Source: a virus
Taxonomy: Duplodnaviria; Caudoviricetes
Virus record (IMG/VR): IMGVR_UViG_3300037418_002332
DNA: 64,000 nucleotides
Strand: one strand, 5' to 3'
The notes beneath the pieces were generated by a model that made no database searches, was not told the origin of the DNA, and worked only from the letters and a program-made list of their open reading frames with translations. Of the stretch, positions 1,361-19,316 are shown piece by piece. Numbering within the stretch: position 1 is the first letter of the stretch; the number at the start of each line of letters is the position of its first letter. The position numbers and the translations under genes were made by a program.

Positions 1361-2374
1361 ATGTTACTGTCGAGAGACGATTTTCGTGAGGGAGTATTCC
1401 GCCGCGACAGATATCGGTGCGTTGTTTGTGGCAACGCTGCTGTTGATGCTCATCATATTTTTGAGCGCAGGCTTTTTCCCGATGGTGGGTATTATCTTGA
1501 TAACGGTGCTTCTGTTTGTGAAGATCATCATCTTGCTTGCGAAAGGACTGATATTTCTGTTGAAGAAATTCGTACTTACGCAGGAATAACCAAACGCATA
1601 ATTCCGCCTCAATTGTATGATGACCAAGTTTATGACAAATGGGGCAATCCCATTTTGTTGAACGGAACACGATTAATCGGTGAACTTTTCTTCGATGAAT
1701 CCGTCCAGAAAATTCTTGCTGGTCATCTTCATGAATTCAGTCATTATGTAAAGTACCCAAGAACGTATCATCTACCTTGGAGCGAAGGCATTCATAATGA
1801 TGATCGAATTATCCCTTCCATGGAAGTTCTTGAGAAATCAGAAGTGGTTGTGACTAAAAAGATGGATGGTGAAAATACCACCATGTACAGTGATCATATC
1901 CACGCGCGAAGCCTTGATTCACTCCATCATCCATCAAGAAATTGGGTGAAGAATTTCCATAATCAGATTGGTTATCTCATACCTGAACACTGGCGTGTCT
2001 GCGTGGAAAATCTTTACGCCAAGCATTCAATAGGCTATGATGACCTTCCTTCATATGCCCTTGGGTTCTCAGTTTGGAATGAACGCAACGTTTGTTTGAA
2101 TTGGGATGAAACACTTGAGTGGTTTGAGCTTCTTGGCATCACTCCAGTTGAAACTCTTTATCGAGGTCCATTTGATGCTGAGAAAATCAAGGCTCTGTGG
2201 AAAGATATGAGTTGGGAAAAGGATGAAGGCTACATTGTCCGAACTGTTTCTGAGTTTCCATTCTCAGACTTTCGTAAAAATGTAGCGAAATTCGTTCGCA
2301 AAGGTCATGTTCAAACAATCAAACATTGGATGCATGGTCAAGCAGTAACTCCAAACAAGCTATTGGATGAATAA
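1361..2374 (+). CDS. HNH-domain / ATP-dependent RNA ligase family fusion
   Basis: N-term RDRYRCVVC..DAHHI..NGASVCEDHH (HNH); C-term KYPRTYHLPWS, motif I KMDGENTT, EGYIVR, KFVR. Confidence 0.8.
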   Translation: MLLSRDDFREGVFRRDRYRCVVCGNAAVDAHHIFERRLFPDGGYYLDNGASVCEDHHLACERTDISVEEIRTYAGITKRIIPPQLYDDQVYDKWGNPILLNGTRLIGELFFDESVQKILAGHLHEFSHYVKYPRTYHLPWSEGIHNDDRIIPSMEVLEKSEVVVTKKMDGENTTMYSDHIHARSLDSLHHPSRNWVKNFHNQIGYLIPEHWRVCVENLYAKHSIGYDDLPSYALGFSVWNERNVCLNWDETLEWFELLGITPVETLYRGPFDAEKIKALWKDMSWEKDEGYIVRTVSEFPFSDFRKNVAKFVRKGHVQTIKHWMHGQAVTPNKLLDE

Positions 2375-2379
2375 AACAG

Positions 2380-2416
2380 AAATCCTCTCTTACTAAATAC
2401 TGTAAAGAGAGGATTT
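2380..2416 (+). promoter_or_regulatory. late-promoter core TAAATA in the loop of an SD-sequestering hairpin
   Basis: AAATCCTCTCTTAC / GTAAAGAGAGGATTT arms flank TAAATA (2394-2399); right arm holds GAGG SD of ATG 2420. Confidence 0.7.
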
Positions 2417-2419
2417 CTT

Positions 2420-3253
2420 ATGACACAAACCAATAACATCACCGCCAATACAACTTACCAAAAAATTGCTGACGGTCCATTGGATATCGTTTTGAATCCA
2501 GTGACAGGTGTCACATATTTGGTTATCAAAACCACAGCTGGTACACCATCATCAAATTATGCTAACACCTTTGTAATGAAATCAGGTGTTGTTGATGGTG
2601 GTCTGAATCCAATGACCATTGCGAATGGTTCTTCAGTTTACGTTCGTTCAGCTGGTTCAAGCTCAGTTCTCAATTACGTAACAACCACTTCATCCGGTGG
2701 TGGCGGCGGAACTGTAAGCATTCCTAATCCTCTTCCAGTATCTGCTTCAAGTGCACTTCCAATTACAACTCCTGGTTCCGGAGTTGCTACAGCAACTTTC
2801 ACTCGCCCAGCCGATACAAACATCTATGCTATCGGTGATTTGATTGCAAACAGCGTCACTGCTGGTTCAGTCACACCAATGACTTTGGCTGTTTCCCGTG
2901 CAAATGATACCACTGGTATGTTGCGTAAAGTTCGAGTCAAAACAAATGATACTGCTTGGGCAAGCAAAAACGTTCGTGTTCACTTCTACAAAAATTCACC
3001 AACTGTAACAAACGGCGACAATGGTGCATGGCTTTCAACCGAAAGTGAATATCTTGGTTATTCTGATATTCTTTTGGATAGACATTTCTCTGATTTTGAA
3101 AAAGGTTTTGGTGTAGCATCAGTTGGTTCAGAATTTATTTTTGCGCCAAGCTCAGGCACTCAAAATATCTTTGCTCTTCTTGAAGCACGTGATGCTGTAA
3201 CACCGGGTTCTGGTAAGACATGGACAGTAACAGTTGAGGTCATCAAAGACTAA
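2420..3253 (+). CDS. probable virion structural protein
   Basis: S/T/G-rich beta-type protein, FTRPADT..YAIGD segment, late promoter upstream. Confidence 0.6.
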   Translation: MTQTNNITANTTYQKIADGPLDIVLNPVTGVTYLVIKTTAGTPSSNYANTFVMKSGVVDGGLNPMTIANGSSVYVRSAGSSSVLNYVTTTSSGGGGGTVSIPNPLPVSASSALPITTPGSGVATATFTRPADTNIYAIGDLIANSVTAGSVTPMTLAVSRANDTTGMLRKVRVKTNDTAWASKNVRVHFYKNSPTVTNGDNGAWLSTESEYLGYSDILLDRHFSDFEKGFGVASVGSEFIFAPSSGTQNIFALLEARDAVTPGSGKTWTVTVEVIKD

Positions 3254-4440
3254 TGCTTAGAGCATCACCTGCAACTCTTAATCAATCAACCAATCCATTC
3301 GCAAGAATGGCGATCGATATGGACTTTGTTAACAATGTCTATCGTGGTGGATCACAGCCTTACGGTAACAACAGCAATGATGGCAGATTGTTTCGTGATC
3401 CATCAAACATCAGTGCAACATACTGTCCTGATGCAACTGGCAAATTAGTTTTACAAGCTGCTGCTGGTCTTCGTCGCACATCTAAAGGTGTGTTTTCATA
3501 CATGTCAAGCACCAATGGCTTGTTGTGGAATCGTGATCTCAATGGCGGCATTGCTGGAGCAACATGGGTAGCGTCAAATATGACTGCTGCAAAGTCTCAA
3601 GTTGGCGCGGATGCAGCAGCTAACCAAGCGACACTTCTCACTGCTACAGCTGCCAATGGAACAATTCAACAGACTGTGGCAGGTAACGTCCAGCGTGTGT
3701 TTTCCCTCGATATCAAGCGAGTGACTGGTACTGGTGGTGTATTTTTATCACTTGATGGTGGAACTACTGAAACTGACATTTCCAGCTTAATCACCACATC
3801 ATATTCCCAACAATATATCACTCAGCTGATGTCAGCAGGTTCAACTTGTCGAATTCGTCTGGCAACCTCAGGTGATCAAGTTGCAGTTGACTTTCTACAA
3901 CTTTGTACGCCAACAATATCTGGGTTGAATATCCCAACTCAACAAAGATATGCAACAACCACCGCAACTCTGATCAATTCACAATGCCGTCCAAACGTTT
4001 TCAACACTGATGCTGGACCAATCTACGGAATCACACGTGGAGCATTTGGTTTCTATTGGCAAGGACGTTCTGAGAGACCAACTGGTGGTTATGTTATCAC
4101 ATCAGACGGTGGAATCTTCTGTAACACAACAGGCACTGGTGCGTTAACTTTTTCATTGAATCCAGGAGCTTCTACGACTGCTGCTGGTGTTTGGAGAACT
4201 GGTCTATCACAACTGAATAAAGTTGCTGGATTTGTCACCCCAAATGGTTTGATTAAGGTTGCATGTAATGGTGTTCTTGGTAATCTTGGAACAAATGCTG
4301 TACTAGATTCAGTATATACCCACTGGGACCTTGGAACAAATGGTGCAGGTAATAATACTATTATGGGCATCACTGAACGATTTTGCATTGGTAAAGAAGT
4401 CAGATTTACTGATGCTGAACTTCTAGCAATGACCACCTAA
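3253..4440 (+). CDS. probable tail fibre / receptor-binding or other virion protein
   Basis: G/T/A-rich, coupled to upstream late gene, lectin-like C-terminus ending FTDAELLAMTT. Confidence 0.55.
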   Translation: MLRASPATLNQSTNPFARMAIDMDFVNNVYRGGSQPYGNNSNDGRLFRDPSNISATYCPDATGKLVLQAAAGLRRTSKGVFSYMSSTNGLLWNRDLNGGIAGATWVASNMTAAKSQVGADAAANQATLLTATAANGTIQQTVAGNVQRVFSLDIKRVTGTGGVFLSLDGGTTETDISSLITTSYSQQYITQLMSAGSTCRIRLATSGDQVAVDFLQLCTPTISGLNIPTQQRYATTTATLINSQCRPNVFNTDAGPIYGITRGAFGFYWQGRSERPTGGYVITSDGGIFCNTTGTGALTFSLNPGASTTAAGVWRTGLSQLNKVAGFVTPNGLIKVACNGVLGNLGTNAVLDSVYTHWDLGTNGAGNNTIMGITERFCIGKEVRFTDAELLAMTT

Positions 4441-4458
4441 AAATAATTCACTTTAAAA

Positions 4459-4506
4459 TCAAGGGTTTACAATTTTCATAGAAGAAATAATTTTGTAGAC
4501 CCTTGA
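4459..4506. repeat. 14-bp inverted repeat in 300-bp intergenic region
   Basis: TCAAGGGTTTACAA (4459-4472) / TTGTAGACCCTTGA (4493-4506). Confidence 0.7.
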
Positions 4507-4698
4507 CAAACATCTAAAAATCAGCAATAAAATAATTCCTCGCGTGCGCGTTAACTTTTGAGGCATGAAATGCCGAAAAATGTTAAGCAACAAGTCCTTA
4601 ACAAGTCCCGTTAACTGATTCTCGCTGACTGCCTATTGATTCCGTTAACTCCCCTGCGTCCCTGAGGTTCGTATAGGGAAGAACATTCAAAATAATGC

Positions 4699-8069: not shown

Positions 8070-9407
8070 TTGGTAAAGCAAATATTCCTCAAAGGTAAAA
8101 AAGCAAATGAGGGATTTCTAGGAACTTTTCTTGATAATGATGCGTATGATGTTTTGCTGACCGAAGACGCTGATGTTTACAAGACAGATGCGTTTGGCGA
8201 AGATACCAGCGATAACAATGTTCTACTGAAATTTCGCAAGGGAGTTTTCTCAAAGGAACTCCGAGACGCAGCGTATAAAGGGTTGAAGGATGGCGCAACC
8301 ACATCACATAATCGTGGTATTGCTACTGGTCCAATTGAAGGCGATATTCAACGTCAATCCCCTGATTCAAAAAATGGTCGTGAATGGGTAACTGATTTTC
8401 AGTTTGAAATTTTGAATTTTTTCATTCAACCATCAGTTCTTTCATTGATGGGTGAAGATGAAAAATTGACCCTTGAAAAACTCATTGAAAAATTCAAGGG
8501 CAAGGAAAAAGAAGTTACATCTTTGCGTGGTCACGTATGGTTGACTGAAAAGATCGAACGCAATGAATTCAACTTCATGAACTGGGCACACGAAACTGCA
8601 AAGTTGCCTAAGACTGATCAAATGGAAGAAGCAAGAATTGTGTCTGAGGAATATATTTCTTCAACCAATTATGCAAATCCAGTTTTCAGTGGTGTAGGAG
8701 GTTTTTATGACAGATACCCAAGAATTCCTTATTGTAGAGCAACTGCCTACACAGCAAACAACAAAGAAAAATTTGAAATGTCTGTTCCATTCATTGAAGA
8801 TATTTCAGGATGGTTCCAAAAGTTGTTACCAACCAGATGGGCAGCTCAGAAAAAAGAAATCGTAAAGATTGATCCTGAGTACCATATTGGCAAATCAGTT
8901 TACACGACAATCACAATTAACAAAAATTTCCGTACTGCTTGTCACCGTGATGCTGGCGATTTGGAAGCTGGTTTCGGAAATCTGACGGCATTGTCTGACG
9001 ATCGTGAGTGGTCAGGTGGTTATCTTTGCTTCCCTGAATATCGTGTTGCAGTTGACATTCGACCTGGTGACGTTTTGTTGATGGACGTTCATGAAATTCA
9101 CGGCAACACCCCAATCTCAAAATTGAATGGTGATGCGCCTGAACGAATTTCAATCGTTTGTTATTTTCGTGAAAAAATGAATGGTTGCTCAGCAAAGTCC
9201 TATGAAGATTATCGTGAGAAGTTTGTCATGTGGAATAAGACTGACAAAAATTGCCCAAGCTGGAGAGAAAACTTCAATGGTGTCTATCCAGACATGTGGA
9301 AAAGCGAACGTTGGTACGATTACCTCAGAGCCAATCTTGGTGAGGACTCATTGAAACAATATCACCCTGAGGCATTCACTTCTGATTTGGCCGATTTCTT
9401 TAATTAG
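8070..9407 (+). CDS. TET/JBP-family 2-oxoglutarate/Fe(II) dioxygenase
   Basis: TITINKNFRTACHRDAGD (HxD), RPGDVLLMDVHEIHGNT (H), RISIVCYFRE (2OG Arg). Confidence 0.85.
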   Translation: MVKQIFLKGKKANEGFLGTFLDNDAYDVLLTEDADVYKTDAFGEDTSDNNVLLKFRKGVFSKELRDAAYKGLKDGATTSHNRGIATGPIEGDIQRQSPDSKNGREWVTDFQFEILNFFIQPSVLSLMGEDEKLTLEKLIEKFKGKEKEVTSLRGHVWLTEKIERNEFNFMNWAHETAKLPKTDQMEEARIVSEEYISSTNYANPVFSGVGGFYDRYPRIPYCRATAYTANNKEKFEMSVPFIEDISGWFQKLLPTRWAAQKKEIVKIDPEYHIGKSVYTTITINKNFRTACHRDAGDLEAGFGNLTALSDDREWSGGYLCFPEYRVAVDIRPGDVLLMDVHEIHGNTPISKLNGDAPERISIVCYFREKMNGCSAKSYEDYREKFVMWNKTDKNCPSWRENFNGVYPDMWKSERWYDYLRANLGEDSLKQYHPEAFTSDLADFFN

Positions 9408-9420
9408 AGTATATGCGAAA

Positions 9421-9615
9421 ATGACGAAATTAATTGTTGTGTTAGTGATGGCTTTTTGTAATGCTGGTGGTGGATATCGGTGTGAATATAAAATCACACC
9501 GGTTGAAACTTGGGACCAGTGCATTCAAGCAAGTCAAAATGCTAGAATAACTTTTGGTGCAAAGGATGCATCTATGGCAATTTATTGTTCCTATATGAAC
9601 CCAAACGATCTCTAA
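9421..9615 (+). CDS. small secreted/Cys-containing protein
   Basis: signal-like N-terminus, several Cys. Confidence 0.5.
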   Translation: MTKLIVVLVMAFCNAGGGYRCEYKITPVETWDQCIQASQNARITFGAKDASMAIYCSYMNPNDL

Positions 9616-9628
9616 AAATCTTTCAAAT

Positions 9629-9684
9629 AATTCTTCTGCCAAAGGAAGAATTCGCTTTACTCCATCCAGTCAATAAGCTATAAT
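9629..9684 (+). promoter_or_regulatory. early promoter with upstream dyad
   Basis: AATTCTTC-N8-GAAGAATT-cgc-TTTACT-N17-TATAAT. Confidence 0.75.
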
Positions 9685-9699
9685 GTTTATAGTGATTGG

Positions 9700-9912
9700 A
9701 TGGAGACTTCCGTGAGAAAGAGAACTCTTAAGACCTACAACGTTCGCTTCTTCCTCCAGTATCAGGGCGGAGGCAAGTCAGGTTCGGAATTCTTCGAAGT
9801 TGTAGCCTTCACTGCTGGTGAAGCAATCAACAAAGTTAAGAAGCAGGCTCGTGACGAAGTCTGGTATGACCGTCACGATGGTTCGGCTCAGTTTTCGGCT
9901 GTGAGGCTCTGA
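9700..9912 (+). CDS. hypothetical protein
   Basis: first ORF after promoter; true start uncertain. Confidence 0.5.
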   Translation: METSVRKRTLKTYNVRFFLQYQGGGKSGSEFFEVVAFTAGEAINKVKKQARDEVWYDRHDGSAQFSAVRL

Positions 9913-10112
9913 TGGTCGTTGGAATGGATCATGAAAAGAAAATCGGTGACAAGTATTGGCATCCGACATTACATTGGGGTGAAGTGACCAACGTGGTCTA
10001 TTATCCTGATGGTGATTTCCACTTCTATGTTGTGAAGTTTGATGAAAACTTCGTTGAATGCATGGAAGAGGATATGGAAGAAGACGCTGAGGCAAAACGG
10101 AGAATGCGCTGA
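9912..10112 (+). CDS. hypothetical protein
   Basis: coupled ORF. Confidence 0.5.
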   Translation: MVVGMDHEKKIGDKYWHPTLHWGEVTNVVYYPDGDFHFYVVKFDENFVECMEEDMEEDAEAKRRMR

Positions 10113-10442
10113 TGTCTCTTGAAGCACAAACCAGAGCATACAATGAATATTCTCGTTTGATGGATGCTTCCAAGAAGGCATATGATGTTGGGAATATGCG
10201 CAAATATTACAAGCTTATTGATGAAGCTGAAGATGCCTTTGATTATTATCAGGATATTCAGCGCCCTTGGGAGGACTGAATGAACGACAAAGCATTTATT
10301 TTGCTCTATGTGATAGGCGTTTTGATTTTCGTCATTGGTATCACTCTGGAGTTGACCGCATGGTACCATTGCGGTTTCAGCGGTTGGATTTACGGGCGAA
10401 ACATTTTCTGGGCCTATTGGCTTGGTTATTGCGGAGGGTGAT

Positions 10443-10985
10443 ATGGAAGAGATCGATATTGAGGACATTGCCACCCATCAAAAGTCCATTTATGCTCGAC
10501 GTCCTGCTCGTATGTCCAAACGGACCGAAAATCTTCTAGCCATTGTCACTGGCTCTCTGTTGGCCGAAAAGTCTGAATATGGTGACAAGGATGGTCTTCT
10601 TGACGCAGCTGCAAAGTTTGTCAAGAATATTGAAATCGAAGCACGTTTTTATCGTGCTATTGCTCGGCTCATTGAGCTTGAAACAAAGCTCAATTTGAAG
10701 CGCGCACCAACTCACTTTTTCCGTACAACCAAGAAAGGTGATGTTCTTTTTGTTCACGACGGCACTGAATTCAAAATTGGCAATCCTGATATTGAAGTTC
10801 TCGACAATATGATTCAGCGTTATGAAGAAGACCTTGCTGATCAAGAAGCTGAAGAAGCTTTGTTGGGTTCAATTCGCAAGAAGCTTTCGCTCGACGAAAT
10901 TCGTATTCTTCGTGGTGAACGTGAACCAATTCTTGAAAAATTGAACCACGAAGAAAAAGATTATATTTCAAGAAATTGGGGTTGA
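10443..10985 (+). CDS. hypothetical protein
   Basis: GGAGG SD before ATG 10443. Confidence 0.6.
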   Translation: MEEIDIEDIATHQKSIYARRPARMSKRTENLLAIVTGSLLAEKSEYGDKDGLLDAAAKFVKNIEIEARFYRAIARLIELETKLNLKRAPTHFFRTTKKGDVLFVHDGTEFKIGNPDIEVLDNMIQRYEEDLADQEAEEALLGSIRKKLSLDEIRILRGEREPILEKLNHEEKDYISRNWG

Positions 10986-11053
10986 TTGGGCTTTACTCGG
11001 CTATCTTCTTCATATATGTATGAGTTGTTAACTTAAGATATAAAGAGGATAGA

Positions 11054-11560
11054 ATGATTGTAGAAAGACCAAGACTGTTTTTGGATTCAGACGGTGTGTT
11101 GCTGGATTTTGATGCCAAATTTATGGAATTGTCCGGTGGGTTGTCTTCATCTGAGTATGAAGATACATATGGCGCAAAGCAGTTTTGGAAGTTGATTCGT
11201 GAGCACGATGACTTTTTCTACAATTTACCCTTCATGAAGGGTGGTTGGGAACTGTGGTCTCATTGTCAGCAGTATGACCCAACCATTCTGACCGGTGCTC
11301 CATTTGGAAACTGGGCCGCACCACAAAAAATCCGAGCGGCAAAGGATCGTTTCAATACAGACAAAATCATCGTTTGCTTGTCACGTAACAAGCGTGATCA
11401 TGCTAACCCTGGTGATGTTCTGGTTGATGATCTACTGAAATATAAGCATCTGTGGGAAGAAATGGGCGGTGTCTTCGTTCACCACACTTCATTTGATACA
11501 ACCGTCGCTGCATTGAAGGAAATTTATCATGGCAAAGATTACTCATCAACAAATGTATGA
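11054..11560 (+). CDS. 5'(3')-deoxyribonucleotidase, HAD/NT5C family
   Basis: FLDSDGVLLDF, ILTG, K, LVDD HAD motifs. Confidence 0.85.
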   Translation: MIVERPRLFLDSDGVLLDFDAKFMELSGGLSSSEYEDTYGAKQFWKLIREHDDFFYNLPFMKGGWELWSHCQQYDPTILTGAPFGNWAAPQKIRAAKDRFNTDKIIVCLSRNKRDHANPGDVLVDDLLKYKHLWEEMGGVFVHHTSFDTTVAALKEIYHGKDYSSTNV

Positions 11561-11981
11561 AAATCGATTGAAGGCTGTTGAATATTTGGAACAGCCTCAA
11601 CTTCGCAAGGCTCGTGAACAACTTCGCGATAATAAGGGTGGCCGTTGTTGTCTTGGGCATATGTGCGATGCTTTTCCTGAAGCAATTTCTACGGAAAAAA
11701 ACGGTGGCCAATGGCTTTATGGCAAAGATAAAGAACCCGCTCGTGCTCCAAAAGAACTTGTAGATTTGCTTGGAATGTACACCAGTATTGGTGGCACCAA
11801 AGATTTCAATATGTTTATGAACGATAAAGGTGAATATCCATTTGGCAACACTCCTAGTCTTGCAGAAGTGAACGATCAAATGCGTGTTTCACCTCAGGCT
11901 ATAGGAAAATATTTGCGTTCGGTTATTCTCGGTGGACCAAACACTCCTTGGAAGAAAATCAAGGTGGCAAAGGCTGCTTGA
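11529..11981 (+). CDS. hypothetical protein
   Basis: GRCCLGHMCD motif. Confidence 0.6.
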   Translation: MAKITHQQMYENRLKAVEYLEQPQLRKAREQLRDNKGGRCCLGHMCDAFPEAISTEKNGGQWLYGKDKEPARAPKELVDLLGMYTSIGGTKDFNMFMNDKGEYPFGNTPSLAEVNDQMRVSPQAIGKYLRSVILGGPNTPWKKIKVAKAA

Positions 11982-12015
11982 ACAAAGTCTTCCCTAAATA
12001 GCATTGGAGATTGAA

Positions 12016-12141
12016 ATGAATTTGATCAGTTTTCTTTTCATTGCGATTACAGTTTTAGTTGCGTGGGGACTCGGTTGGGGTGGAGCAACTCTTCATACAA
12101 AATACGAAGAATGGAGACTTAGAAGAAAGTATGGAGAATAG
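12016..12141 (+). CDS. small membrane peptide (41 aa, not in ORF track)
   Basis: MNLISFLFIAITVLVAWGLGWGG...; preceded by CCTAAATA and GGAGA SD. Confidence 0.5.
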   Translation: MNLISFLFIAITVLVAWGLGWGGATLHTKYEEWRLRRKYGE

Positions 12142-12520
12142 ACAGCTAGAATTAGATTTGGGTGATAAGCTTCAAAAATGGGAGTTAATTGCCCGGAAGA
12201 TGTTGGCTACTGTCAAACACAGTAACAACACATCAGTTAGAATTTTTAAGGGTCGTAGACCCGAAGATTGGATACTTGGCACTCGAACTTTTATCTATGA
12301 TACGGATTACACATATGATCATGTTATAGATTGGGAAACTGCCAAATATCTTTATGAAAAAGTTGGAGTTTGGGACTTTTTAGATTCAGTCAAAGGCAAA
12401 CTTGACGAAGAAAAGAAGATGCGACTTCTTGATCAAGTTGTCATATGTAAAAAGTGTGGATGTGAAAAGACGATTGCTGAAATGCAATCACAGGATCATA
12501 AAGCATGTTTTGAGGGATAA
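12131..12520 (+). CDS. hypothetical protein
   Basis: C-terminal CxxC..HxxC. Confidence 0.55.
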   Translation: MENRQLELDLGDKLQKWELIARKMLATVKHSNNTSVRIFKGRRPEDWILGTRTFIYDTDYTYDHVIDWETAKYLYEKVGVWDFLDSVKGKLDEEKKMRLLDQVVICKKCGCEKTIAEMQSQDHKACFEG

Positions 12521-13432
12521 ATGTATTCAATCGCAATGCGGACATATGGACGTTCTAAAACGTTTTCCGAACGCACCTACAAGTTTTTGAAGGCTCAGAC
12601 AGGTCTCGACTTGGCTGAGCAACTTTACATTTTTGTTGCAAACAAAGAGGAAAAGGCTCTCTACGAGGAAGCCTTGAAGGATCAACCATATAAACAAATT
12701 GTTGTTGGTGTCTTGGGTATCAAGGAAGTTACTGACTTCATGTTTCATTTCTTTGGAAATGGCAAGGAAGTCTTTTTCTTTGATGACGATCTTTTTGATT
12801 TCTTTGAATTTCCTGGTCATCCATTGACAATAAAAATCCAAAAAGAATCAACAAATTTGCACAATTATTTACTCGATGGGTTTAAAACCATTCATGAAGA
12901 AGGCATATCAACTTTCGCCTTCCGGTCCATGACCAATCCACTTTTCATCAGTGGAAAAGCTTTCAAGGAAATTCGTCCACACTATTTGGTTGGTTCAGCA
13001 TGGGGTGCTGTGACTAATTTTGAACTCCATACAACCATGTTTGGGCACAATGAAGATATGGAACGTTCAGCCAAAGTTATTGAAGAAGATGGTGGTTCAT
13101 TGGTTTACAATTGGGCTGGTATGATCAGTCATATCAACAATGTTGGCCAAGGTCTCAATGAAGGTGGAATGCAATCATCAGGTGATCGCGGTGATTTTGA
13201 TGATCCTGAATCCAGATATAATCATACAAAGGCTATTGTTGATACTTTGGCGAACAAATCATTGATGCCAAAATATTTCAATGGTCCATTCTACGATGAA
13301 ACTTTGAAAGCTTGGGATTGGAAAATCAAACCATTGAACAGTTTGAGAAAATATCCAATTCGTGAAAAACGTTGGGATGAATATTTCGATTCAGTTTCCC
13401 ATGAAATTGTAACAAATAAATTGCCAATTTAG
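12521..13432 (+). CDS. GT-A glycosyltransferase, TET-associated (TAGT/GREB1-like)
   Basis: IAMRTYGRS, FFFDDD (DxD), NEDMERS, GGMQ. Confidence 0.75.
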   Translation: MYSIAMRTYGRSKTFSERTYKFLKAQTGLDLAEQLYIFVANKEEKALYEEALKDQPYKQIVVGVLGIKEVTDFMFHFFGNGKEVFFFDDDLFDFFEFPGHPLTIKIQKESTNLHNYLLDGFKTIHEEGISTFAFRSMTNPLFISGKAFKEIRPHYLVGSAWGAVTNFELHTTMFGHNEDMERSAKVIEEDGGSLVYNWAGMISHINNVGQGLNEGGMQSSGDRGDFDDPESRYNHTKAIVDTLANKSLMPKYFNGPFYDETLKAWDWKIKPLNSLRKYPIREKRWDEYFDSVSHEIVTNKLPI

Positions 13433-13441
13433 GAGAAATAA

Positions 13442-14125
13442 ATGTGTGGAGTTCTTGGTTACAAGACCATCAATCCTTGCGCAACCGATCTTGAACTCAT
13501 TCGCAATTTGTTTTTGGAAGCTGGTATTCGCGGGCAACATGCAACGGGCATTTCATGGTTAGAAGGCAAAAAAATCAACACCGTTAAACTGCCTGTGGGT
13601 TCTGAAGAGTTTGTTAAACAATTCAATTTCAACAACCTTTTGAATTTAGATGGATCAATCACAATGATTGGTCACATTCGATACTCAACTAGTGACGTTC
13701 GGTTCAATCAACCTTTTTCCAATGATAAATACGCCATCGTTCATAATGGTGTAATCAGTCAAGAATCACCTGAAAATTGGCCTATCAAATGCGAAACACG
13801 CAATGATAGCGAAATGGTGCTACACGCTTTGTCTGATTTTAAAAACTACAAACATCCTCTCGAAGAATTTCCAGATAGCAGTCAAGCTGTTGTTTTTCTC
13901 CAAAATTCATCAAATGTACTTGGTGGTTGGAGAAATGGTTTAAGACCTTTGTGGTATTCATGGGATGCCCATGAGCGATTGATTCTCGCTTCTACTGAAA
14001 ATATCTTGAAACGTGCTGGCATTAAAAATGCAATCAAAGCACCAATGAATGTTGAATTATTCATGGAAGGCGATGAATTATATCAAAATCCATATCATCC
14101 AACAAATAAGAAAGATTTACAGTAA
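13442..14125 (+). CDS. class II (Ntn) glutamine amidotransferase
   Basis: MCGVLG with catalytic Cys2, RGQHATGI, GHIRYSTS, HNGVI, NDSE. Confidence 0.85.
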   Translation: MCGVLGYKTINPCATDLELIRNLFLEAGIRGQHATGISWLEGKKINTVKLPVGSEEFVKQFNFNNLLNLDGSITMIGHIRYSTSDVRFNQPFSNDKYAIVHNGVISQESPENWPIKCETRNDSEMVLHALSDFKNYKHPLEEFPDSSQAVVFLQNSSNVLGGWRNGLRPLWYSWDAHERLILASTENILKRAGIKNAIKAPMNVELFMEGDELYQNPYHPTNKKDLQ

Positions 14126-15037
14126 ATGGGAAAATACGAACCAAGCAATTGGTCATATGGAAGTGAACTTGAATTAGGTGATGTGAAATTTGGGCAAGAA
14201 CTTCCTGAAGGAAATAGTTGGAATACCAAAGATAATACAGTTATGAATTCCAATGGTGTGGCTAATGATCCAAAGGGTGAAATTTGGCCATGGGGTGGTG
14301 AAATTAATTGTAAACCAACTTCAACCACCATTGATCAAACACGCAATTTCACTTATGTATTGAGTGAATTGTCAAAAGAAGCAAAGCCGGTTGTGAATTT
14401 CAGATCAAATCTCCATATTCACGTGCGAGTTCCAGGATTAAAAGATGACCTTGAAGCGGTTAAGAAATTGCAAAGATACATTGATTCCTATGGGCAGGAA
14501 GCATTCGACATCGTTGAGCGTATCCCGAAGCCTGATCCTAGCCAAATGTCCAAAGAAGCTTATGAAGGTGCGTACAAAAGATTCAAGCGTCGTAAAGTGA
14601 GTCATCAATACATGCTTCCAAAAAATCGTTTGGATGAAATGTATGCTGCAACTACTGTCAAGGAATTTTGGGAAGCACATGCACCAATTGGTAAAGATGG
14701 TGCTCGTATGTGGTATTTTAGTCCACGACCAGGCATCAATCTGAGACAGCTTTGGGAAGAAACGGACACGGTTGAATTCAGACATTATCCTGGAACAATT
14801 GATCCATGGGAATTTGATTCATGCGTTCGTTGGTCTAAAGAGTTTCTTTATCATGCACTTTCTGATGAACAAAAAAGACCTCTTGACTTTTACACACCAG
14901 AGGATTATAAGTTTCCAAAGTTCGGTGAATATGATTATGAGTTGGACAAAATCTTTAAGATGACCAACTTTGCTGATAATAATCGTGCAACGGTTAAGGC
15001 AAACATCGAAAAACTTCAAGCGGAAGGCAAAATATGA
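14126..15037 (+). CDS. putative amidoligase (COOH-NH2 ligase, GCS-like fold)
   Basis: YGSELEL, GGEINCKP, LHIHVR, INL, TVEFRHYPGT. Confidence 0.7.
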   Translation: MGKYEPSNWSYGSELELGDVKFGQELPEGNSWNTKDNTVMNSNGVANDPKGEIWPWGGEINCKPTSTTIDQTRNFTYVLSELSKEAKPVVNFRSNLHIHVRVPGLKDDLEAVKKLQRYIDSYGQEAFDIVERIPKPDPSQMSKEAYEGAYKRFKRRKVSHQYMLPKNRLDEMYAATTVKEFWEAHAPIGKDGARMWYFSPRPGINLRQLWEETDTVEFRHYPGTIDPWEFDSCVRWSKEFLYHALSDEQKRPLDFYTPEDYKFPKFGEYDYELDKIFKMTNFADNNRATVKANIEKLQAEGKI

Positions 15038-15603
15038 GTTTAGCTGAATTCATAGAAGAACGCGATAAACATTATTCAAATTTTGACCATTTGAAGAAAA
15101 TTCCAATCGGTGGAAAGATTCTTTTCATTTGTGTTGGAAATATCAATAGAAGTCCAGCAGCAGAGTTGATGATGAGGGATCAACTAGTCGCTCACTCCAA
15201 ACTGAACTGGATTGTATTGTCGGCAGGAATATCAGATAAAAATAAAGGCAAGTTGACTGCCAAAAAAATGCGTGATATTCTTTTGGACATGGGTTATGAA
15301 AACAATTCAGTTCGTTCACAACCTGTTACGCAGGAACTTGTTGATCAGGCTGATGTCATTTTCGTCATGGACGGCGCAAATGAACGCAAGCTAGTGGAGA
15401 AATTTGGTGAGCAAATACTATCTAAAATTCAGTACATCGGAGATTGGAACACAACTTCTTCAAGAACAATACCTGATCCCCATTTTCATAGTGGGAGTGA
15501 GATGCATCGAAAAGTTGCTTATCTTCTTGAGGGCTCTATCCACAATTTAATTGGTTATCACGAAGCCATTTATAATTTCGAAGAGCCATTGAAGGGAAAT
15601 TGA
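15034..15603 (+). CDS. low-molecular-weight protein-tyrosine-phosphatase/ArsC-fold phosphatase
   Basis: P-loop CVGNINRS (CX5R), SAG, IPDPH general-acid motif. Confidence 0.85.
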   Translation: MSLAEFIEERDKHYSNFDHLKKIPIGGKILFICVGNINRSPAAELMMRDQLVAHSKLNWIVLSAGISDKNKGKLTAKKMRDILLDMGYENNSVRSQPVTQELVDQADVIFVMDGANERKLVEKFGEQILSKIQYIGDWNTTSSRTIPDPHFHSGSEMHRKVAYLLEGSIHNLIGYHEAIYNFEEPLKGN

Positions 15604-15604
15604 T

Positions 15605-16393
15605 TTGAAAATTTTCATTCCAACATATAAGCGTGAAGGCAAACAATTTACGTTGGCCGGCATCCCTAAAGGCTGGTTGAATAAGACATATCTTGTCTGC
15701 CCAAAGGAGGAAGTTCATGATCACCCTCTTCGTGTCGATGTGCCTGTTGAGTTCATTGGTTCCATTGCGAAAACACGACAATTCATCATTGATCAAAGTG
15801 ACGATCCTCAAATAGCAATGCTGGACGATGATCTCACGTTCTACAAACGTGATGAAATTGTCAAAACTCAACGTTCTACAAGTTCTGCCATAGTTAATGA
15901 TCTATTTCATTTGATGAACGACTGGTTAGATCAAGGTGATGTATTTTGCGGAACTTCGAATTCATTTATGTCACATGAGAAACCAACTGAATATTACTAT
16001 GGAAAACCATCCCACTGTTGTTTTCTAAATCGTGATTATTTGAAGCAACATAACATCCGTTACGATGCGGTGACATATTTTGAAGATTTCCATGTTCCAA
16101 TTTCCGTAATTGAATCTGGAAAACGTTTGCGTTACAGCGGCGAATATATCTCTATTGAAAAGAAGGCAAACGCTGAAGGTGGTTGCTCAGTCAATCGTAC
16201 CAAGGAAAACAACCGTGAAGCCATGATTGAGCTTCAAAAACTTCATCCAAATTACATCACCTTAAAAGAAGACGAAAAGGCTGAAAATCAAAATCTTCAG
16301 GTTGGATTGAAGATGAGAATTGAGTTCAAAAAATTGTACGATGAATTTGTATTGGGTAAGAAAGCCAAAATTGAATATGGGAGTCTGTTTTGA
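15605..16393 (+). CDS. second TAGT-like GT-A glycosyltransferase
   Basis: MKIFIPTYKR, IAKTRQFI, MLDDD, FEDF, GGCS. Confidence 0.75.
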   Translation: MKIFIPTYKREGKQFTLAGIPKGWLNKTYLVCPKEEVHDHPLRVDVPVEFIGSIAKTRQFIIDQSDDPQIAMLDDDLTFYKRDEIVKTQRSTSSAIVNDLFHLMNDWLDQGDVFCGTSNSFMSHEKPTEYYYGKPSHCCFLNRDYLKQHNIRYDAVTYFEDFHVPISVIESGKRLRYSGEYISIEKKANAEGGCSVNRTKENNREAMIELQKLHPNYITLKEDEKAENQNLQVGLKMRIEFKKLYDEFVLGKKAKIEYGSLF

Positions 16394-16492
16394 TCAATAG
16401 ATATATTGAAATTTTCATAGATGATATCATTCCTTTCATCGTTGGTGTCATTATTCCGTTTTCAATCTTTGGATACATAATGGTGACACATC

Positions 16493-17476
16493 TTGGATAG
16501 ACTCGACACTTTCATTGATTGGTTTGGGACCTCAGTTCGTATCAACGACTGTGATCCGGCTCTATTCATGACCACTTATTTTTTCGATCGATTTGAATTT
16601 AATCTTGAGCAAAAATATTGGTTGTGCTGGATATATGGAACAACCTATCATTGGCCAACCGCATATATCATCTGGAATGAATTTCCGGACTTTGCGTTGG
16701 TTGGTTATGATAAACTCAATGAATGGAATACTGAAAATTTCAAACGTCTGAGATATCAAACGGATACTAAATGGAACAAAGGTCATTTGGCCGAAATGTT
16801 CAAATCATACCGTGATCGATTGAAAGGATATGAGAGTCAAGAAGCTTATTTTAACAAATTGTGCGACAAGCCTCATGATCCATATTCTAATTTTTTGAAC
16901 TGTTATAATGCAATCATCCGTGATTTTCATAAATTTGGCAGATATTCAACTTGGTTCTATTTGCAGATTTTAAAACAATGTGTTGGTCTGAATATCGAAC
17001 CTGAGACATTACTGTTATCTGATCCTGGTTCTGAATCCCATCGTAATGGATTTCTATATGCTATGGGCCGTGAAGATTTGATTGATCAACCGATCACCAA
17101 AGAACAATATCAAGAATTTGAAGAAATTGCTGCAACTGTTTTGAACGAAACCCGAAGACGTTTTCCAGACGTTGCACATAGAATCGACTACTTCGCTATG
17201 GAAACTTGTTTGTGTAGTTTCAAGAAACTATTCAGAACACGTGACGGCAGATATCTTGGTTATTATCTGGATAGACAAGCTGAAGAAATTCAAAAGGTTG
17301 AAAAGGATGGTTGGATCGGCATTAACTGGAAACCTCTTTGGCAATGCCGTGAAGAAATAGTGGATAAAAAATGGTTGACTAATGCTATTGATCCAGCTAA
17401 AATGCATCTATTCCTAAAAACTGGTGATATTCATGCGGAGCTTGAAAAATCCGCATTGGAAGATTTTTTCAATTGA
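16493..17476 (+). CDS. aGPT-pyrophosphorylase / amino acid:DNA transferase (clade 2-like; HhH glycosylase-like fold)
   Basis: DCDP, WIYGTTY, RYQTD, KFGRYSTWFY (HhH-like), SHRNG, METCLCSFKK, RYLGYYLDR. Confidence 0.75.
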   Translation: MDRLDTFIDWFGTSVRINDCDPALFMTTYFFDRFEFNLEQKYWLCWIYGTTYHWPTAYIIWNEFPDFALVGYDKLNEWNTENFKRLRYQTDTKWNKGHLAEMFKSYRDRLKGYESQEAYFNKLCDKPHDPYSNFLNCYNAIIRDFHKFGRYSTWFYLQILKQCVGLNIEPETLLLSDPGSESHRNGFLYAMGREDLIDQPITKEQYQEFEEIAATVLNETRRRFPDVAHRIDYFAMETCLCSFKKLFRTRDGRYLGYYLDRQAEEIQKVEKDGWIGINWKPLWQCREEIVDKKWLTNAIDPAKMHLFLKTGDIHAELEKSALEDFFN

Positions 17477-17488
17477 GGAGAATATAAA

Positions 17489-17752
17489 ATGTCAATTTTC
17501 AAAAACATTACTGAGAAACTGAAGGAAATTAAAGACGTCGCAATCGAAAAGGCTGGCGACGTAGCTGAGCTTGTTGAAGACAAGTACGATGATGCAAAGG
17601 AACTTACTTCCATTGCTATCAACAAGGCTGGCACTGCATATGAAGGTGCTCGTGATTACGCAGCAGAAAAATACGAAGATGCTAAGGAAGTGGCTGGTGA
17701 GGTTAAGACCAAAGCAAAGAAAGTTGCTGACGTAATTCGCGAAAAAGAATAA
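17489..17752 (+). CDS. small amphipathic repeat protein (LEA/apolipoprotein-like)
   Basis: repeats AIEKAG/AINKAG and KYDDAKE/KYEDAKE. Confidence 0.6.
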   Translation: MSIFKNITEKLKEIKDVAIEKAGDVAELVEDKYDDAKELTSIAINKAGTAYEGARDYAAEKYEDAKEVAGEVKTKAKKVADVIREKE

Positions 17753-17997
17753 TGCGTTTTCATTGCGTAAATATTTTTGATTGGCTATCTGATCGTAGAT
17801 ATGCCAGTTATATTAAGAAAACACATTGGCATAAAAAGTTCACTTGGTTTCCAACCAGAATGACAGATGGCGATGGAGAATGCGTTTGGTTTGAAACAAT
17901 CTGGCGCAAAGGCGAATGTGACAGTTACAATGGAACTTGGTATTGGTCATATGTGACACCAGAATTTTATAATTACAATAGGTACAATGATGTCTGA
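17752..17997 (+). CDS. hypothetical protein
   Basis: coupled ORF. Confidence 0.5.
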   Translation: MRFHCVNIFDWLSDRRYASYIKKTHWHKKFTWFPTRMTDGDGECVWFETIWRKGECDSYNGTWYWSYVTPEFYNYNRYNDV

Positions 17998-18328
17998 ACA
18001 ATATTACGAATTATCGATAACTGCTGATACCAATGATGCTGATTATGTGACTGCAACTCATAAAGTTACAATGGAAAAAATCCAGGCTTTGTTGCCTATC
18101 ATTGAAGTGATCAACAAGAAGACACTAGAACTTAAAAACCAACGTGGTTATGGTCATAATTTTCCAAATGGTGAAATTGGCGATCCACGTGAAGTGTATT
18201 CTGAGGAAGAGCTTACTGACGAACAAATTGATTTAATCAGCGATTATTTACCATATGGCGAATATGGTATTCACACAATTACTGACATCGAATATTATCC
18301 ATACCCAGAAAAGGTTAGACTTCTATAA
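17987..18328 (+). CDS. hypothetical protein
   Basis: coupled ORF. Confidence 0.55.
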   Translation: MMSEQYYELSITADTNDADYVTATHKVTMEKIQALLPIIEVINKKTLELKNQRGYGHNFPNGEIGDPREVYSEEELTDEQIDLISDYLPYGEYGIHTITDIEYYPYPEKVRLL

Positions 18329-18732
18329 TGGGATTTGCATACGATTTGAAAAAGAAAACCGCTGAAGCTCAGGCGGATTTGAAAAATAAAGAAGCTCAAG
18401 AACATCGGGAAGCAGTAAGAATTCAAAAGCTTCTGGAAGCTGAACGATCCAAAAAATTCAAACATTCCGTCAAGGAATCAACCAAAAAAATTCTTGAACA
18501 AATGGAAATTGCTGCCGCAGCTGGCAGGCATTCCTTGGAATTTGAACCAAGGACATATTTCAATTATGCTGAAAATTTTCCATTGGCTGATATCGTTCAA
18601 GAATTAAAACGTCACATTGGTGATCCTGAATTCATTTACAAAACACGATCCGAAACTGTGGACGGCGAATGGGTAGACGTCGGCGACTACAGAGAAGGAT
18701 ACACAACTCGCTGGATAGAAATTTCATGGTAA
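18328..18732 (+). CDS. hypothetical protein
   Basis: coupled ORF. Confidence 0.55.
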   Translation: MGFAYDLKKKTAEAQADLKNKEAQEHREAVRIQKLLEAERSKKFKHSVKESTKKILEQMEIAAAAGRHSLEFEPRTYFNYAENFPLADIVQELKRHIGDPEFIYKTRSETVDGEWVDVGDYREGYTTRWIEISW

Positions 18733-19316
18733 AAAGATGCGTTGCAATTGGTGGTGTTCCTGGAACTGGGAAAACCACCTTAATGTTAAAATTCATGGGT
18801 GATTTGACACCAATCACCAAACTTCGAAACTTGGTTAATGGCCATGTTTATAAGGATCGCGTGGTCCTTGGAGATTACACCAAGGATGGGTCATTCAAAG
18901 GCACTGATACATTCTCAATGGCTGTCCAACCTGAAGCTGAGGAATTCTTCAAAGAAAACAAGTTTCATGTGGTGTTTGAAGGTGATCGAATTTTCAATTC
19001 AAAAATGCTCAACTTCATCCAAGACAATGGATATGAGCTTTTGACTATCATTATTGAAGCTCCTGAGAAAATGTTGAAGGAACGTTATGCTGAACGTGGT
19101 TCAGATCAATCCGAAAAGTTTTTGTCTGGACGTAAAACGAAATATGAAAACATTAAAAACGATGCCAGTTTAAAGGTTTACACGGCTGTTCATGAAGAAC
19201 CACTCGATACTGTGAAAATCGCAGTTGCGATGTTAAAATTCATTAATGATGGCATCATCGATGATGGTACATTGAAAGAAGTCAAGCACGATTCACTGGA
19301 CGACTTTTTCTCATAA
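18726..19316 (+). CDS. P-loop nucleotide kinase of DNA-hypermodification type (5-hmdU DNA kinase-like)
   Basis: GGVPGTGKTT Walker A, GTDTFSMAVQP, VVFEGDRI, ERYAERGS. Confidence 0.75.
   Translation: MVKRCVAIGGVPGTGKTTLMLKFMGDLTPITKLRNLVNGHVYKDRVVLGDYTKDGSFKGTDTFSMAVQPEAEEFFKENKFHVVFEGDRIFNSKMLNFIQDNGYELLTIIIEAPEKMLKERYAERGSDQSEKFLSGRKTKYENIKNDASLKVYTAVHEEPLDTVKIAVAMLKFINDGIIDDGTLKEVKHDSLDDFFS

Follow-up and report, generated by a model that had tools for sequence, protein, structure and literature searches.

Genome context and the modification gene cluster

The DNA considered here is a 64,000-nucleotide stretch (the window, meaning that stretch at its full length) of the virus record IMGVR_UViG_3300037418_002332 (Duplodnaviria; Caudoviricetes), in which genes for DNA base modification lie between positions 8,070 and 19,316. 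The subject is a short C-terminal tail of the type carried by the phage DNA polymerase, which is shared by three enzymes encoded there: a TET/JBP-family dioxygenase, an amino-acid:DNA transferase (AADT), and a P-loop nucleotide kinase. The window is part of a 247,119-bp viral contig (97% complete), for which about 400 candidate genes were called genome-wide. The phage is T4-like: its family B polymerase shares 42-43% identity with the gp43 of cyanophages, and homologs of gp45, gp44, gp62, gp55, gp32, and RNase H are all encoded in the genome. The three enzymes and their tails, in window coordinates, are as follows.

8070..9407, + strand: TET/JBP-family 2-oxoglutarate (2OG)/Fe(II) dioxygenase, 445 aa (Pfam PF12851, 81.6 bits, E=5e-23)
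9384..9404, + strand: C-terminal tail of the dioxygenase, DLADFFN (...TSDLADFFN), after a variable linker
16493..17476, + strand: AADT, 327 aa (Pfam PF18724, 70.5 bits against a cut-off of 26.2, E=2e-19)
17453..17473, + strand: C-terminal tail of the AADT, ALEDFFN (...KSALEDFFN)
18669..19316, + strand: P-loop nucleotide kinase 3 family protein, candidate 5-hydroxymethyl-deoxyuridine (5-hmdU) DNA kinase (Pfam PF18751, 29.8 bits against a cut-off of 27)
19293..19313, + strand: C-terminal tail of the kinase, SLDDFFS (...HDSLDDFFS), at the end of an extension of about 21 residues

The metal ligands of the dioxygenase (HxD...H; H292, D294, and H344) were invariant in 30 homologs, and the enzyme is probably a thymine dioxygenase. 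No C5-methyltransferase was found in the genome, nor was there a ParB match (PF02195) in the 97%-complete sequence, while 11 of 14 control genomes matched. In the kinase, the Walker A residues G10, P12, G15, K16, and T18 were invariant in homologs, and its true start is probably the ATG at 18726, giving a protein of 196 aa, because all homologs begin there and the 19 codons upstream overlap the preceding open reading frame (ORF).

A C-terminal tail shared with the DNA polymerase

A preceding sequence-only reading of the window had remarked that the dioxygenase, the AADT, and the kinase end alike and that no other ORF does so. Both observations hold: DLADFFN, ALEDFFN, and SLDDFFS terminate members of the three proposed families, each motif stops one residue before the C-terminus, and no further ORF with such an ending was seen in the window. 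The genome-wide scan that the same reading had recommended revealed L[ADE]DFF four times in 247,119 bp, always one residue from the C-terminus. The fourth carrier was an 843-aa family B (gp43-type) DNA polymerase (genome positions 224375-226906) ending in ...VDSLEDFFN, so that the gp43 of this phage, which the reading had named for comparison together with gp55 and gp33, bears the same type of peptide (SLEDFFN). With the looser pattern L.[DE]FF, four terminal matches were obtained against 0.04 expected from its internal frequency over the whole genome. The four tails are written with differing synonymous codons and three different stop codons and have unrelated flanks, indicating that it is the peptide that is conserved rather than a DNA repeat; a repeat origin was ruled out on these grounds.

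Conservation of the tail in related phages

To follow the tail beyond this genome, 80 related viral loci were fetched, among which strict-motif counts refer to distinct sequences. The strict motif terminated 15 of 15 polymerases, 47 of 50 dioxygenases (as [ST]L[ED]xFF), and 48 of 59 AADTs, whereas it was found in none of 31 kinases (more distant homologs), 48 GATases, 22 ligase-like proteins, or 24 clamps. A separate search for AADT yielded 1284 homologs; among the best 120, 99 were stand-alone proteins, and 80 of these 99 end in a loose variant of the motif, GL[ED]xF[FMI] or close to it (e.g., GLEEFF, GLEAFM, and ALEDFFV). Loss of the tail in homologs had been named beforehand as an outcome that would speak against clamp tethering, and the tail was instead retained in dozens of dioxygenase and AADT homologs. 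Aligned dioxygenases show a linker of variable length and sequence, with insertions and deletions, between the fold and the tail, which is nearly invariant although the homologs retaining it are only 40-60% identical. About 20 of the best 120 AADT homologs were P-loop kinase-AADT fusions of about 480 aa (P0013, P0015, P0023, and P0034 among them), which end in other motifs (e.g., KKVQSFL and EIKSLIN). A close relative (L095) carries tandem TET/JBP paralogs of 446 aa each (1792-3132 and 3180-4520) with the tails NLEDFFN and SLEDFFS. In two related phages (records G003 and G004; L086-L089), the polymerase is split into ORFs of about 484 and about 365 aa, a few hundred bases apart, and the tail is retained on the C-terminal half.

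Besides this phage, only its two closest relatives had the kinase extension of about 21 residues (ending in HDSLDDFFS or HDSLEDFFS). Twenty aligned homologs lacked it, and the kinase tail is a recent acquisition. In the AlphaFold2 (AF2) model of the kinase (pLDDT 92.6), the final helix of the fold extends to residue 175 of 196, and the tail lies beyond it.

Other members of the cluster, listed below, differ in this respect.

15605..16393, + strand: TET-associated glycosyltransferase (TAGT), 262 aa, with a degenerate tail ...KIEYGSLF (Pfam PF20691)
12521..15603, + strand: second TAGT-like protein, GATase, ligase-like protein, and low-molecular-weight phosphatase, cluster members without a tail

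The weaker GSLF ending that had been attributed to a glycosyltransferase was located on this TAGT (...EYGSLF). TAGT homologs in L093 and L095, 68-72% identical to it, end in GLDEFFG and GLESFFG, and since these closest relatives carry the full tail, GSLF is a decayed tail. A full tail hidden by a frameshift past the TAGT stop codon was looked for and was not present in the other frames. The proposal that the tail divides the oxidation, kinase, and AADT steps from a glycosyltransferase branch is consequently not supported, as the TAGT of the closest relatives has it in full. A separate C-terminal motif, [ED]DLQ, at times followed by C or P, occurred in all GATase homologs of the cluster (L003-L082); the GATase of this phage (window 13442-14125) ends in KKDLQ, which is not a clamp-type tail.

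In relatives, the tail was also carried by further unrelated folds, including TAGT and, in more distant phages, GNAT acetyltransferases beside the AADT, HNH endonucleases, and small unknown proteins. It was, however, not a general property of genes neighboring the polymerase, as the genes beside gp43 in P-SSM2 (2OG oxygenase, uvsX, gp41, and methyltransferase-like) had no tails. The HNH or endonuclease VII-like nucleases with a clamp-type tail (L021:8887-9375, L053:11952-12617, and L028:4824-5174) suggest clamp-guided nucleases, possibly homing endonucleases.

Could such an ending be functionless, a product of chance or the remnant of a recombination that copied the 3' end of the polymerase gene onto its neighbors? 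In relatives, only a few kb separate the modification genes from those for the polymerase and the clamp, which makes illegitimate recombination conceivable. Nevertheless, this origin is highly improbable considering the excess of terminal matches over expectation, the synonymous differences and unrelated flanks, the retention of the tail across divergent homologs while the preceding linker varies freely, and the independent recurrence of shared endings, with other motifs, in two further lineages (see below).

Relationship to the gp45-binding epitope of T4

In phage T4, gp43, gp55, and gp33 have similar hydrophobic-acidic C-termini, which are gp45-binding epitopes and freely interchangeable, and the epitope of gp55 is attached via a divergent linker of variable length (PMC2988020). 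As read from the T4 record (NC_000866), these endings are KASLDFLFG in gp43, SPSLDFLYEAND in gp55, and NTLDFLL in gp33. The tails described here are likewise hydrophobic-acidic in composition (DLADFF, ALEDFF, and SLDDFF, against SLDFLF, SLDFLY, and TLDFLL in T4). In BLASTP, the alignment of the phage polymerase with T4 gp43 reached the C-terminal residue of each protein, where T4 has the epitope SLDFLFG, so that the polymerase tail corresponds in position to this epitope. The gp43 proteins of cyanophages end in NLDSFFS and SLEDFFG, and [ST]L[DE]xFF is therefore the marine T4-like form of the motif. In addition, gp55 was checked in five genomes of relatives, and in three it ended in the motif (NTLEPFMK, SDLMDFFLDDEE, and SDLSEFLVG), thus adding to gp43 a second protein whose T4 ortholog binds the clamp by its tail.

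As to the clamp itself, a 218-aa gp45-type protein (genome 220564-221220; PF09116 match) is encoded beside homologs of the gp44/62 loader, and its profile matched the RB69 and T4 gp45 structures (1b77/1b8h and 1czd) over the full length (E=8e-41). Complex prediction for the clamp trimer with dioxygenase residues 396-445, both with alignments, gave a median score of 0.16 against a mark of 0.32 and was uninformative on binding either way.

Covariation of the tail with the polymerase between lineages

Salmonella phage ViI encodes a gp43-type polymerase, a gp45 clamp (record 91596-92264), and a loader. Two of its enzymes have been verified biochemically, gp243 as a 5-hmdU DNA kinase and gp247 as a serine:DNA transferase (PMC8989533). 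The ViI polymerase ends in RVNLLSMMGKKG, gp243 in SVSLLGLMRKA, and gp247 in SVNLMSLLKR. Across the ViI proteome, [NS]L[LM][SG][LM][LM] occurred five times, in each case among the final 12 residues; besides the three proteins just named, a 70-aa protein and, more weakly, a tail-tube-like protein carried it. T4 gp43 aligned with the ViI polymerase to residue 1029 of 1032, placing SLDFLFG opposite NLLSMMG. Vibrio phage 144E46.1, a member of the ViI family with a gp45-type clamp of its own, showed yet another ending: [KR][KR]LW terminated its polymerase, AADT, HMUD2 kinase, HMUDK-helical-domain protein, and a 99-aa protein, and all five occurrences of this motif in the proteome were terminal (5/5). 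Three lineages thus carry three unrelated motifs, and in each the modification enzymes match the polymerase. As a negative control, the clamp-less Mycobacteriophage Mithril has a dioxygenase, an AADT, a kinase, and a ParB-like protein, which share no tail. This covariation between lineages is, in our assessment, the strongest evidence for a shared clamp-type tail.

The 70-aa ViI protein (L106:10355-10564) and the 99-aa Vibrio protein (L118:16708-17004) both belong to phrog_4789 and each bears the tail of its own lineage; the Vibrio gene sits between the gp32 and gp59 genes. Proteins of this family could be clamp-binding regulators, perhaps analogs of gp33. In Mithril, the ParB-like protein, a TET/JBP-like 'oxidoreductase', the AADT, and the P-loop kinase 3 form a block (L124:1-3465) at the left genome end beside the terminase, which is the ParB-associated form of the same pathway.

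The bacterial beta-clamp motif is QL[SD]LF, and the LLGLM and LMSLL of the ViI tails resemble such pentapeptides. The comparative data show only that the enzymes have a partner in common with the polymerase tail, and the gp55 and gp33 of this phage lack the tail, so that docking on another common partner (the host beta clamp, the clamp loader, the single-strand-binding protein, or the polymerase) has to be considered, in which case the enzymes would still be associated with the replisome. We consider such a partner unlikely: gp45 is the sole documented partner of the homologous gp43 tail of T4/RB69 (PMC2988020), the same motif occurs on gp55 of three relatives, all three lineages have their own gp45 clamp and loader, and the phage without a clamp has no shared tails.

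A still less probable explanation is a signal without bearing on replication, one that, on the polymerase as well, might mark proteins for degradation, keep them soluble, or direct their localisation. It would fit with the activity of the enzymes in vitro without the clamp, and short C-terminal motifs can act as protease tags. However, a degron on the essential replicative polymerase would be odd, the position is homologous to a proven clamp epitope, and the tail is limited to DNA-acting proteins (polymerase, gp55, TET, AADT, kinase, TAGT, GNAT, and HNH). Furthermore, the motif differs between two related lineages that both infect gammaproteobacteria, across which protease recognition signals are expected to be similar.

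Probable clamp tethering of the modification enzymes

Taken together, the shared ending is probably a sliding-clamp-interacting peptide that tethers the modification enzymes to the clamp. Docking on the clamp had already been proposed in the sequence-only reading; that part gained strong comparative support from the tail of the phage's own gp43, dozens of homologs, and the covariation in two lineages, while its appeal to gp55 and gp33 tails and its division into two branches did not stand. Under clamp tethering, the tail would be the form, [ST]L[DE]xFF, that the gp45-binding C-terminal epitope takes in marine T4-like phages. The dioxygenase, the kinase, and the AADT, each with a polymerase-type peptide, would all have polymer DNA as their substrate. 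During replication, gp45 clamps would be loaded and would remain on the fresh duplex, recruiting the enzymes and holding them on new DNA. We infer an order in which thymine would be oxidised to 5-hydroxymethyluracil soon after synthesis, the kinase would phosphorylate the 5-hydroxymethyluracil, and the AADT would swap the phosphate for an amino acid; the latter two steps are established for ViI and M6 (PMC8989533). The enzyme tails would bind gp45, perhaps with a gain in processivity or timing. Since the enzymes end in the type of peptide by which T4-type polymerases hold the clamp, modification is probably tied to newly copied DNA.

Several observations weigh against this interpretation. The first concerns gp55 and gp33, whose C-termini the sequence-only reading had proposed for comparison: in this phage, gp55 (genome 212871-213368) ends in ...NMDNFIREYEAKHPKG and gp33 (phrog_254, genome 187286-187513) in ...KKADALPI, and neither homolog has a canonical tail. 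In T4, the clamp contacts of gp55 and gp33 drive late transcription. As both homologs lack the tail here, late transcription in this phage may not use the T4 arrangement, and its coupling to the clamp may have been lost or rewired. An MDNFI segment of gp55 was considered as a hidden motif and rejected, the matching segment in two relatives looking like part of the fold. Secondly, the core of the tail was uniform within the marine clade, and no genome-specific covariation was detected: when tails were shuffled between 11 genomes, polymerase and dioxygenase had 48 identical positions versus 47.7 expected (p=0.52), and polymerase and AADT likewise showed no excess (p=0.43), a comparison without power because the core motif is the same across the whole clade. 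Thirdly, AF2 assigned high confidence to residues 181-190 of the kinase extension, and the linker may therefore not be floppy. In ViI, moreover, the clamp recognised by tails that resemble bacterial beta-clamp motifs could be that of the host. Finally, gp243 and gp247 of ViI are active in vitro without a clamp (PMC8989533), implying that the tail would serve targeting or timing rather than catalysis, and a claimed interaction of the T4 alpha-glucosyltransferase with gp45 was not reproduced (bioRxiv 10.64898/2025.12.06.692756), illustrating that such claims can fail.

Phage hypermodification is usually described as the work of free enzymes that act on DNA after replication, a picture that raises the question of how each fresh duplex is modified quickly enough to evade host nucleases, and the rationale for post-replicative modification has been called a mystery (PMC13229309). 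If clamp tethering is true, clamps left on new DNA would recruit the enzymes, giving a concrete and testable answer. Because ViI is in culture and shows the same pattern on two enzymes for which purification and assays exist, the idea could be tested without delay. A practical consequence is that the C-terminal tags often fused to such enzymes may hide a motif that matters for function. New DNA-acting enzymes in phage genomes might also be picked out by a simple sequence rule, the search for proteins whose last residues resemble those of the polymerase. A literature search found no paper on polymerase-type tails of phage TET, AADT, or kinase enzymes, and the tails are not mentioned in the key experimental papers (PMC13229309 and PMC8989533). 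The type of mechanism, a clamp 'toolbelt' with peptide-bearing clients, is known, whereas clients of this class, and the way in which their tails covary with that of the polymerase from lineage to lineage, seem to be new.

Comparison with known systems

Among clamp clients, those closest to the enzymes described here are gp43, gp55, and gp33 of T4/RB69 (PDB 1b8h, RB69 clamp with polymerase peptide), in which a short hydrophobic-acidic C-terminal peptide is likewise common to several proteins. The clients here modify DNA bases and do not belong to the replication or transcription machinery; their consensus is [ST]L[DE]xFF instead of [ST]LDFL[FLY], and gp55 and gp33 of this phage are without the tail. 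The proposal, from in vitro data, that the T4 alpha-glucosyltransferase binds gp45 embodies the same idea of a phage DNA-modifying enzyme riding the clamp; nevertheless, the T4 alpha- and beta-glucosyltransferases have no SLDFL-type tail, whereas the present enzymes carry an explicit polymerase-type one. In eukaryotes, DNMT1 is recruited to PCNA via its PIP box, and there, too, a DNA-modifying enzyme is coupled to the replication clamp behind the fork by a short linear motif. The clamp family member, the motif, and the chemistry are different, and several successive enzymes of a pathway would be involved here, not one methyltransferase.

Post-replicative oxidation of thymine in DNA has been demonstrated for phage TET/JBP enzymes that occur together with GATase, P-loop kinase, and AADT. 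On duplex DNA, a ParB activator is reported to be required by many of these enzymes, and no activity had been seen in E. coli assays for members of the clade that lack ParB (PMC13229309). These ParB-dependent thymine dioxygenases (5mYOX clade C1; PMC13229309) have the same gene set and need a DNA-associated helper on double-stranded DNA, and relatives of ParB are themselves DNA-sliding clamps. Here, by contrast, there is no ParB, and a polymerase-type tail stands where the ParB-dependent enzymes carry a C-terminal extension. A broader possibility, less likely than not, is that docking on a DNA-sliding platform is a general need of post-replicative hypermodification, supplied by a polymerase-copied, co-evolving clamp peptide where gp45 is present and by a ParB-like protein in clamp-less phages. 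On duplex DNA, the clamp would then activate the thymine dioxygenase or make it processive, which would explain why ParB-less clade C1 dioxygenases are inactive alone in E. coli (PMC13229309).

The nearest counterpart in chemistry is the ViI pathway (PMC8989533), with the same succession of kinase and AADT acting on 5-hydroxymethyluracil in DNA and with gp243 and gp247 bearing the tail of their own polymerase. The two systems differ in that 5-hmdU is supplied before replication in ViI, whereas the dioxygenase probably makes it on DNA here, and the tail sequence is quite different.

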